Below, in pieces: positions 57,565 to 58,490 of a stretch of 64,000 bases of DNA. The DNA is taken from UHGV virus genome UHGV-0104313, one strand, 5' to 3'. Positions within the stretch are counted from its first letter, which is position 1. Each line of letters begins with the position of its first letter. Origin of the DNA: a virus. The notes under the pieces were generated by a model. The model made no database searches. It was not told the origin of the DNA and saw only the letters and a program-made list of their open reading frames with translations. Made by a program: the position numbers and the translations under genes.

Positions 57565-58403
57565 TTATTAACCTCATTACTGGTTGGGAAATAAGGTTGC
57601 GGTGCCGGGTGCCTCCCGGTGTCCTTTAGCTGGTTATCCACCGTGGACGGGGGAATAAGGAGAAATAATGGACAGATATAACCATTTCCCCGCGTGCGCT
57701 TAGCCGCATTCACCGCAACGGAAAGAGCATTCCTGGTGGACCTGTAGATTGGGATATGAACCCGTTACAGGAGAATGCTCTTACCTGTTACGTGCTCCGT
57801 TTCGTGGAGCTAACGGCGGGTGATCGGGCCGCACCAGACTGGACTTATTTCAGCGTTATGCTCATGCCAGAGAATCAAACTGTGATGGTCGGTGCTGAAC
57901 TCCGACACAGGGTTGTAGCAAGCCCCGCAAAGCGCGCACTACTGTAGTTGCGGCACATCAGCCTGTGCATTCACCACAATGTTGAGAACACTGGTTGTCA
58001 CGCTGCAACGCAACATTTATTCGTAGATTGGGATATGACCCCGTTACGCCAGTGTTCTCAACGTTGTAGTGCCGGTTACGGTTCCGGCCAGGCCTCTTCC
58101 TCAACGGGGTGTTCTCCATACGGACTACCGTTTATTGGTCGTTCCTGCGGTTTATGTTGTGAAGCCAGATGCTTATCTTCTGGTTGCTTCAAAGAGCTGC
58201 ACTTCATCACAACGGTAAGAGCACTCGATGCATTTAAGCCAAGCCCCATAAGGGAGAATGCCCTTACCTGTTGTGTTGTGATGACCGGTGCTGATCTCCG
58301 GCTTGCGGTTATTTCAGACTCTCACGGGCGTTTAATTGCCCCGCCGAACAGCTCTTTTCCGCAATAGCTGCAATGTCTTTCGCGCATCAGCCTGCGCATT
58401 CAT

Positions 58404-58490
58404 CACAACGGTAAGGGTACTTCGTAGGGATTCGAACCCTCTGCCAAGCTCGGCGATCTCCGACGTCGCAAAATACCCTTACCTGTTGTG
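58404..58490 (-). ncRNA. tRNA-like structured element with extended 16-bp closing stem
   Basis: minus-strand RNA CACAAC-A-GGUAAGGGUA...[GCGA-loop-UCGC][AGGG-UUCGAAU-CCCU]...UACCCUUACC-GUUGUG; lacks an anticodon arm; directly 3' of tRNA-Thr. Confidence 0.4.

Follow-up and report, generated by a model that had tools for sequence, protein, structure and literature searches.

Recurring structured RNA modules in a P1-type ban operon leader

Several described RNAs of phages and prophages resemble, each in part, an array of hairpins that we analysed in the ban operon leader of the virus genome UHGV-0104313 (a stretch of 64,000 nucleotides, hereafter the window). In the tRNA cluster of phage T4, the stable RNAs 'species 1 and 2' are structured non-tRNA RNAs that are co-transcribed and co-processed with the phage tRNAs; the array is likened to them by analogy only. 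The lambda N leader reportedly holds an RNase III hairpin (the boxC stem) between nutL and the N ribosome-binding site, as Kameyama in 1991 and Wilson in 2002 are said to have described. Among small RNAs (sRNAs), STnc100 was related in a 2026 preprint to PasD, both being abundant Hfq-associated prophage sRNAs encoded near Q, holin and TerB genes, and another paper placed a copy of STnc100 75 nt downstream of stx2. KilS has been verified as an sRNA of the 5' untranslated region of kilR (PMC8175672), and AgvB binds the sRNA GcvB through CACAACA, the consensus of the GcvB R1 targets (PMC4104026).

Over the 2.1 kb around the array, the identity is 100% with phage JL22 and, one indel aside, about 99% with P1, and the window is, judged by its sequence, that of a P1-like phage. 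In the annotations of P1, P7 and JL22, the array region lies on the minus strand between Op72/Pban and tciA-ban. About 1.7 kb of untranslated RNA separates Pban from tciA on this strand of the C1-controlled ban operon, and the spacer from tRNA-Thr to tciA measures about 0.9 kb. The order of the operon is Pban, a dicF-like segment, the hairpin H0, tRNA-Asn, tRNA-Thr, four units (H1-S1, H2-S1b, H3-S2 and H4-S3), tciABC, tRNA-Ile and ban. The results of our analysis showed that neither decayed tRNA genes nor a protein-coding stretch accounts for this region; it is an untranslated sense-strand spacer made of two recurring modules, a long hairpin (H) and a compact domain (S). When the listed parts are summed, defined structures take up about 84% of the 1081 nt between tRNA-Asn and the tciA ATG.

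Long hairpins and compact domains of the leader

An earlier note on this DNA, made from its letters alone (the original prediction), had drawn attention to the repeats of the region. The repeat CCCTTACCTGTTGTG was indeed exact at 58261-58275, 58476-58490 and 58915-58929, with a variant of three mismatches at 57778-57792 and a further relative on the minus strand at 58849-58863, and its inverse partner CACAACGGTAAGRG was exact at 58208 and 58404, with an additional variant at 57714. The five matches to CCCTTACCTGTTGTG (three mismatches or fewer) compare with 1.22 expected and were reached in 0 of 100 shuffles, and the four matches to CACAACGGTAAGRG compare with 0.48 expected (0 of 100 shuffles). 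The predicted inverted repeat proved to be 23 nt long (57972-57994 / 58049-58071) and 91% complementary, and the duplicated GCRCATCAGCCTGYGCATTCA blocks were located at 57953-57986 and 58382-58415. Minus-strand hairpins, of which at least two had been claimed, number five, with energies from -34.5 to -49.2 kcal/mol and z from -5.1 to -6.5, and 0 of 200 shuffles folded as well. The observation was thus confirmed; of the two explanations offered with it, the structured RNA family was right and the degenerate tRNA genes were mostly wrong. The S module had not been recognised (the blocks described as duplicated CATCAGCCTG are the 5' hairpin of S), nor had it been noticed that H and S are both common in phage leaders without tRNAs.

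Folding of the minus-strand RNA gave closing helices of 19-24 bp with 1-nt bulges for the five copies of H. Their consensus is (C)ACAAC-A-GG-U-AAGAGCAUUG on the 5' strand and CAGUGCUCUU-U-CC-GUUGUG on the 3' strand; within the stem, a bulged A and a U·G wobble are conserved, and a U·U mismatch is present. At the apex is an insert of 23 to 90 nt, which behaves as a variable cargo. Alignment of 22 H-type stems (the window supplied four and other loci 18, the arms having been pre-selected at a duplex energy of -22 kcal/mol or lower) showed that 93.8% of the cells are paired and that nine of the 19 pairs are changed on both sides, with a covariation score of 0.279 versus 0.132 after shuffling (0 of 500 shuffles). 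The stems of H3, of loci L110, L090/L198 and L130 and of phage mEp460 are quite different in sequence, and their pairing is retained. For the 24 nt located 5' of the S domains, the mean energy of pairing with upstream sequence is -24.5 kcal/mol versus -16.5 kcal/mol at control positions, and 55% of these duplexes are beyond the 5th percentile of the controls. The frequent G·U pairs and the conserved wobble would be A·C mismatches on the plus strand, which indicates that the functional strand is the sense strand of the operon.

Two other features of the H modules were observed. The small ACGAAAC hairpin just 5' of H4 recurs elsewhere with a covarying stem, GCCAC-ACGAAAC-GUGGC in locus L025. The conserved insert motif GGGNUCAUAWCCCAAUC(U/C)A is common to H3 (about 58030-58045), H4 (about 57750-57765), an mEp460 hairpin and several IMG/VR copies, a place outside the window being about 2395-2415 of locus L003 (minus strand); it has a T-arm-like shape without the T-loop consensus.

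The layout of the S module is 5'-[N7-R-U-G]-AAU-GCGCA GGCUGA UGCGC-(40-150 nt variable)-GCCGG AGAUCAGCA CCGGC-[C-A-Y-N7']-3', in which a covarying 10-bp closing stem encloses two near-invariant hairpins (C, then A) and a variable middle. The S loci were first gathered by a pattern scan for TGAATGCNCAGGCTGATGNGC, which matched at least 120 viral contigs, and the two N positions of this pattern were exclusively G..C or A..T. When the search was anchored on the 5' side, the partner of the closing strand was always found directly after hairpin A, and when it was anchored on the 3' side, the partner was always found directly before AAUGCGCAGG; since neither anchored search required this position, the result is an independent check on the closing stem. 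In 30 diverse copies, 95.2% of the cells were paired (84.8% after shuffling) and the covariation score was 0.304 versus 0.103 (0 of 500 shuffles), with compensatory pairs at eight of the ten positions of the closing stem and four of the five of hairpin C. In 104 copies aligned to a model, 96.9% of the cells were paired, the covariation score was 0.320 versus 0.086 and 17 of the 24 pairs were compensatory. A covariance model of S (R1), whose E-values are rough, found three copies in the window (S1, S2 and S3). The gathering of loci with exact patterns inflates the apparent conservation of S and removed loop variants.

The covariation check proposed in the original prediction thus gave compensatory pairing in homologous regions for both modules, and a structured RNA family lies, as proposed, on the tRNA (sense) strand of the ban operon, its pairing being kept by compensatory changes between the copies as well. 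In the two S hairpins, the loop GGCUGA(U) is complementary to the loop AUCAGC through G-C-U-G-A and U-C-A-G-C. Pairing of the loops was 100%, including a single compensatory A-U, in P7, and G·U in three cases. A kissing-loop interaction of 5-6 bp between hairpins C and A is plausible, and not proven, since the loop invariance comes in part from the pattern-based retrieval; covariation of the loops in the larger set was uninformative, these loci having been retrieved with exact loop patterns.

Among the copies of the window (Table 1), S1 has the closing stem GUUGUGAUG / CAUCACAAC, a hairpin C of GCGCA-GGCUGA-UGCGC and a hairpin A of GCCGG-AGAUCAGCA-CCGG. The truncated S1b, which was not matched by R1, reads GUUGUGAUGAAG ... 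CCAGA-AGAUAAGCA-UCUGG-C-UUCACAAC. S3 reads GUUGCGGUG-AAU-GCGGCUAAGCGC ... CCGGG-AGGCA-CCCGG-CACCGCAAC and ends about 30 nt before the tciA ATG.

Canonical S matched no Rfam family when the region, S1 alone and a Pseudomonas copy were submitted to permissive scans, and the sub-threshold output consisted of STnc100 at S3, YrlA over real tRNAs, miRNA-like hairpin noise and an 18-nt likeness to RydB. No published account of the S sequence strings turned up in the searchable literature. The S core appears undescribed save for the distant relatives STnc100 and PasD, and the region is part of a large, mostly unannotated family of phage leader modules. The RydB likeness concerns hairpin A (GCCGGAGAUCAGCACCGG; 58285-58302 on the minus strand of the window, and 3135-3152 on the plus strand of locus L240), which resembles positions 30-47 of RydB (GCCGGAGAUAAGCGCCGG) at 13.7 bits, far below threshold. 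The truncated S1b of the window has the same AGAUAAGCA loop. RydB might be a remnant of an S domain.

Table 1. Features of the ban operon leader in the window. P1 annotations (NC_005856) were mapped with an offset of 55995, derived from the positions of tRNA-Thr; R1, covariance model of S
Feature	Position	Strand	Evidence and remarks
Pban promoters and bivalent C1 operator (Op72), ban transcript start	59297..59342	-	P1 NC_005856 annotation, transferred
dicF-like leader segment	59101..59202	-	P1 annotation and terminator scan
H0, long hairpin CACAACAGGUAAGGGCGCUG...CAGCGUCCUUUCCUGUUGCG	58849..58929	-	-45.3 kcal/mol, z = -5.4; repeat family D4; upstream of tRNA-Asn
tRNA-Asn (GTT)	58570..58645	-	ARAGORN and Rfam, 74.5 bits
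tRNA-Thr (TGT), encoded CCA	58492..58567	-	ARAGORN and Rfam, 67.1 bits
H1, long hairpin, 1 nt past the tRNA-Thr CCA	58404..58490	-	-41.6 kcal/mol, z = -5.6; T-arm motif scan
S1, canonical S	58274..58410	-	R1 87.4 bits, E = 3e-19; 98% identical to lambdoid copies
H2, long hairpin	58208..58275	-	-34.5 kcal/mol, z = -5.1
S1b, degenerate, truncated S	58150..58207	-	Repeat D5, 75% identical to the 3' end of S1; read directly
H3, long hairpin, stem GUUGAGAACACUGG / CCAGUGUUCUCAAC unlike the others	57972..58071	-	-49.2 kcal/mol, z = -6.5; inverted repeat I1
S2, canonical S; hairpin C GCACA...UGUGC, a compensatory variant	57878..57981	-	R1 73.3 bits, E = 9e-16
Small hairpin GCUCC-ACGAAAC-GGAGC just 5' of H4	57794..57810	-	Read from the sequence
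H4, long hairpin	57713..57793	-	-36.1 kcal/mol, z = -5.1
S3, variant S, STnc100 type	57595..57720	-	R1 30.5 bits, E = 3e-5; Rfam STnc100 34.4 bits
tciA (TerB-like), first open reading frame (ORF) 3' of the array	57139..57564	-	ORF list; Pfam TerB E = 2e-6; P1 annotation
tRNA with CAT anticodon	56789..56864	-	ARAGORN, tRNA-Met(CAT); P1 annotation, trnI (tRNA-Ile2, lysidine type)

In each unit of the array, 7-10 nt belong both to the 3' side of H and to the 5' side of the closing stem of the next S. The two helices, the lower H stem and the S closing stem, are therefore rivals for these bases, and a cut or a refolding in either one would have consequences for its competitor. Upstream of the array, a hairpin-A-like GCCGGAGACGUACCCGGC precedes tRNA-Asn, and the dicF-like segment is a homologue of the sequence upstream of dicF in Qin, not of the DicF body. 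This segment terminates in a strong intrinsic terminator-like hairpin with eight T (59119-59141, minus strand), so that the tRNAs, tciABC and ban would all need read-through. In the P1 transcriptome preprint, the ban-leader spacer goes undiscussed.

Distribution, contexts and exchange of the modules

Comparison of S1 with 5426 complete E. coli genomes showed that it is present at 95% identity or more in 845 of them, at 715 chromosomal and 236 plasmid places, and pieces of the region matched 188 phage records (lambdoid, P22-like, Felixounavirus, Ackermannviridae and several siphovirus groups). The exact 21-mer TGAATGCGCAGGCTGATGCGC was found in at least 120 species-representative genomes (L230-L349), in Enterobacterales, Pseudomonas, Burkholderiales, Xanthomonadales and Alphaproteobacteria, and of the 120 genomes listed, 84-86 also have hairpin A and the closing stem. 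A few metagenome-assembled genomes labelled Flavobacterium, Coriobacteriia, Phycisphaerales and Acidobacteriota also carry TGAATGCGCAGGCTGATGCGC; these non-proteobacterial cases could be binning contamination.

The S domains are located in the untranslated leaders of early-left and late operons, mostly after cI/nutL and before N, or after Q and before the lysis genes. The commonest neighbours of 333 S loci were, on the upstream side, a same-strand repressor of the cI/LexA type at a distance of about 1.9 kb (71 loci) and Q- and NinG-like genes and, on the downstream side, N-like genes at about 120 nt (21 loci) and genes for endolysin (24), spanin (21) and holins. Locus L022 has the order cI, PL, nutL (boxA and a P22-type boxB), hairpin, S and N-like gene, and in HK620 the S domain is located between qut and the annotated late terminator tQ, within the short PR' transcript. 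Pieces of the region lie in or near tRNA arrays in Sf19 and swi2. The S domain ends 23-31 nt upstream of the start codons of N-like genes, tciA, dicB and kilR. A role of S as a tRNA 5' leader was weakened by the finding that it ends within 10 nt of a tRNA in seven of 153 domains. A put-type antiterminator of the HK022 kind was also rejected, HK022 being without the motif and without an S domain.

Comparison of the window with reference P1 NC_005856 (L001), which covers 92% of the query in two pieces, showed that a 196-bp unit of S1 and H2 (about 58208-58403) is present in the window and in JL22 and absent from the reference; another P1 isolate (OP279344) also has it. The S1 part of this unit shares 98% identity with lambdoid phages (mEp460, IME207 and Stx phages among them), which suggests that the cassette was exchanged recently at the junction, the repeated CCGUUGUGAUGAA. 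P1-like phages differ in the tRNAs of the array (1638-1724 of L005/L006 and 2408-2494 of L008, all minus strand): P7 and D6 have an extra tRNA-Ser(TGA) exactly between the 3' strand of S and the next H, and Ro157c2YLVW has a tRNA-Tyr between tRNA-Asn and tRNA-Thr. Modules may be gained and lost by recombination at the shared junction sequences.

Possible roles of the modules

The reading that we prefer, tentatively, is that H and S are cis-acting modules of RNA processing, stability and insulation. The analysis shows the structures with their covariation and strand, and the spread and genomic contexts of the modules; cleavage, stabilisation and shielding from Rho are inferred. It fits the positions of the modules, the lengths of their stems and the precedent of dicBF. 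The RNase III valley fits about 22 bp of double-stranded RNA (PMC6212723), and intramolecular duplexes near the 20-22 bp expected of RNase III substrates were found in H0 to H4 (19-24 pairs) and in the Qin and Rac stems described below. The near-perfect H stems of about 22 bp and the extended S stems would be RNase III-type cleavage sites, and their cleavage would free the tciA-ban mRNA, downstream, from the tRNAs and from the leader on the upstream side. Where S, a compact domain, ends 23-31 nt ahead of a start codon, the 5' end of that mRNA would be structured and protected, and the context of its ribosome-binding site defined. The sense strand holds more G than C, with a C-G excess above 0.1 in only 2.4% of the 78-nt windows, and a leader so densely folded and so composed would make a poor substrate for Rho.

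Several results weigh against this reading. The mapped RNase III site of Qin is upstream of dicF, not in S, and the S1 and H2 modules are dispensable in reference P1. Folds of minimum free energy for the whole array did not reproduce all the module folds, and were indecisive on the competition between H and S. The alignments came from pattern-anchored matches, so that the loop invariance and a part of the pairing were selected by the retrieval. An intrinsic terminator was found 120 nt or less after S in 44 of 214 cases versus 31 of 641 controls (20.6% versus 4.8%), and 17 were located within 11 nt, a pattern that looks like discrete sRNA genes. Many copies of the Pseudomonas type and others (L014, L065, L094, L142 and L148 among them) have a canonical intrinsic terminator 0-11 nt after S and resemble stand-alone sRNA genes. 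Finally, not a letter changes in 21 nt of hairpin C or in 19 nt of hairpin A over a span that extends from Enterobacterales to Pseudomonas, Burkholderiales and Alphaproteobacteria; a role of structure only leaves such letter-perfect hairpins unexplained, which points to a specific partner or activity.

That the modules are the bodies of trans-acting sRNAs (as are the Hfq-bound prophage RNAs STnc100, PasD, KilS and DicF), released or terminated after S, and base-pair with or sponge host or phage RNAs, seems rather unlikely to us. The excess of terminators, the Hfq association of STnc100 and PasD, the architecture that S3 shares with STnc100 as a sub-threshold relative, and the place of the HK620 domain inside a short transcript speak for it, while no intrinsic terminator was found by the terminator scan of the window after S1, S2 or S3, and the variable, seed-like part of S differs in every copy, its invariant parts being predicted to be paired. 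In one version, CACAACA-rich 5' strands could titrate GcvB as AgvB does: the motif occurs five times in the 1.7-kb leader (58929, 58490, 58280, 58275 and 58161, minus strand) versus 0.15 expected from its frequency in the window. These copies are not independent, because all come from one repeat family, and stems bury most of them; the strongest pairing with GcvB R1 (-27.6 kcal/mol, for an assumed GcvB sequence) was unexceptional beside other chunks of the window, with up to -36.1 kcal/mol. There is thus little behind a GcvB sponge, which we rejected. It is unlikely, in our estimate, that S is a specific ligand, mimic or catalyst for a universally conserved partner (candidates being RNA polymerase or Nus factors, the ribosome, RNase P and a conserved phage protein), or a new self-cleaving ribozyme, with the kissing-loop fold and its invariant nucleotides being what is recognised. 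The spread of the 21-mer over several proteobacterial classes together with hairpin A and the closing stem, the complementary loops and the position of S downstream of nut and qut sites favour such a role; the tiny junctions of S (AAU and 0 nt) offer no obvious ligand pocket, no ribozyme or riboswitch family was matched in Rfam, and no single neighbouring protein family extends beyond 71 of the 333 loci. An RCCA sequence follows the closing stem, as at the 3' end of a tRNA, in an N-leader subclass. It is restricted to 12 of 138 distinct tails, all of this one related subclass, and is not found after the copies of the window; an RNase P mimic was rejected on this ground. A broader proposition is possible, if somewhat doubtful: canonical S may be an undescribed and very widespread phage and prophage RNA whose invariant core is kept for a universally conserved partner or for catalysis in antiterminated early and late leaders, the P1 array being a tandem, tRNA-interleaved deployment of it with H as a companion.

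Three further explanations were weighed. Conserved junctions could be recombination linkers at the DNA level that swap tRNAs, morons and leader cassettes, the folds being by-products or the modules selfish. The clean gain of S1 and H2 bounded by repeated CCGUUGUGAUGAA, the tRNA-Ser and tRNA-Tyr inserted at module junctions in P7, D6 and Ro157c2, the same motifs within otherwise unrelated flanks and the many chromosomal and plasmid places of S1 would agree with this. Recombination, however, needs identity and not complementarity; the closing stems vary by locus yet pair, with seven or eight of nine or ten pairs compensatory, the G·U pairs are strand-specific, and no associated recombinase or transposase was seen among the neighbours of the 333 loci, so we hold linkers to be very unlikely. 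Degenerate or truncated tRNA genes, the leading idea of the original prediction, are more improbable still and largely refuted. As the prediction had it, H1 starts 1 nt after tRNA-Thr and contains a D-arm-like segment and a T-arm, GGGUUCGAAUCCC, the latter being perfect by our analysis; extra tRNA-Ser genes in the D6 and P7 arrays are real, and T-arm-like motifs were found in 15 of 144 upstream (H) segments versus 45 of 5000 controls, some of the 15 being genuine neighbouring tRNAs. A motif scan (GTTCRANYC loop, 4-5 bp stem) found no T-arm in H0, H2, H3 or H4, which tells against degenerate tRNAs as a general description, and the conserved long stem, kept by compensatory change, has no tRNA counterpart. 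The Rfam scan that had been suggested returned, at gathering thresholds over the whole window, three tRNAs only, and ARAGORN and Rfam called nothing beyond tRNA-Asn, tRNA-Thr and tRNA-Met(CAT), even at E <= 10 over 57300-59400. The claim that no credible ORF covers the region held, with the correction that P1 records annotate the plus-strand genes upl and plp, which we judge to be spurious. That the region encodes these proteins is hardly credible: plus-strand ORFs of 63 and 139 amino acids exist, and Upl matches PHROG families (all of unknown function), but neither has a Pfam match, plp has no PHROG family, overlaps trnT in P1 and, like upl, is absent from P7 and D6. P1 Plp and the ORF of the window are identical over 93 amino acids and then wholly divergent, because the 196-bp indel shifts the frame. 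No annotated feature lay under S1 in 40 of 40 matches listed, from 889 E. coli records, and the DNA of upl and plp carries covarying RNA helices on the opposite strand.

Other candidates were also rejected. A small ORF (MNAQADA...) starting from RUGAAUGCG is not conserved in its downstream sequence or its length (11-25 amino acids), and its variable positions are only G..C or A..T pairs. Judged from the sequence alone, the defining motifs or spacings of box C/D or K-turn elements, hammerhead ribozymes, integron attC sites and CRISPR-like arrays do not fit.

For the annotation of P1, these results mean that about 0.9 kb labelled upl and plp are better read as structured non-coding RNA of the opposite strand. 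The S core, which has no Rfam family and no sequence match in the searchable literature, is conserved at a level that is usual only for RNAs contacting core cellular machinery. If H and S are processing signals or factor-binding elements, they would explain the maturation of phage tRNAs and mRNAs from long untranslated leaders, and would be defined parts for the study of antitermination-linked RNA processing.

Comparison with described leader RNAs

Comparison of H1 with YrlA (RF02553) showed a similar long closing stem with a T-arm and D-arm-like module and without an anticodon arm. However, four of the five H copies are without a T-arm, and the sole YrlA match (25.6 bits, the gathering score being 69) lies over real tRNAs, at 58508-58625, and over no H hairpin. 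No Ro/Rsr orthologue was flagged among the 18 most frequent neighbour families of the 333 loci, a count made without a dedicated search. AgvB and AsxR are RNAs of enterohaemorrhagic E. coli prophage leader regions located 3' of PR', and the P1 array has five copies of the CACAACA motif; they are, however, 51-60 nt long, terminator-ended and of an unrelated fold, and no Rfam match to either was found in the region.

The hairpin of the lambda N leader has the same position as S, and its GGUGUG/CACACC closing stem precedes AAAGCUAACUGACAGGAG, an arrangement also seen in loci L042 and L079. Its interior is a long irregular rod that is not known to hold hairpins C and A.

The variant domain S3 is closest to STnc100 (RF02076). 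It aligns to positions 31-147 of the 206 positions of the model at 34.4 bits (E = 2.9e-5), below the gathering score of 47. Common to the two are the closing stem caUGGUG...CACCAug, the linker GAAU, a hairpin on the 5' side and, abutting the 3' strand, a final hairpin, CCGGGAGGCACCCGG. This terminal hairpin is present in S3 as CCGGG-AGGCA-CCCGG, directly against the 3' strand. Both are located in lambdoid-type leaders near Q, holin and TerB genes. Canonical S1 and S2, in contrast, gave no match to STnc100, and their hairpins are different and far more conserved, with complementary loops.

Domains of the S3 type were also found by R1 in prophages of E. coli K-12. In Qin, one is located exactly between dicF and the dicB start codon (19454-19583 of L227, plus strand, corresponding to 1649453-1649582 of NC_000913), and in Rac, one is located between the sRNA gene kilS and kilR (7262-7392 of L229, minus strand). 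Both are unannotated in the record, and their closing stems are lengthened to about 22 bp. The P1 ban leader is linked by one architecture to the lambdoid N and late leaders, to the dicF-dicB and kilS-kilR leaders of K-12, and to STnc100 and PasD. An S3-type domain is common to the dicBF, kilS-kilR and P1 leaders, and the P1 leader also has a dicF-like segment upstream; the K-12 leaders have one module without tRNAs, whereas in the P1-like phage the H and S modules form an array with tRNAs among them.

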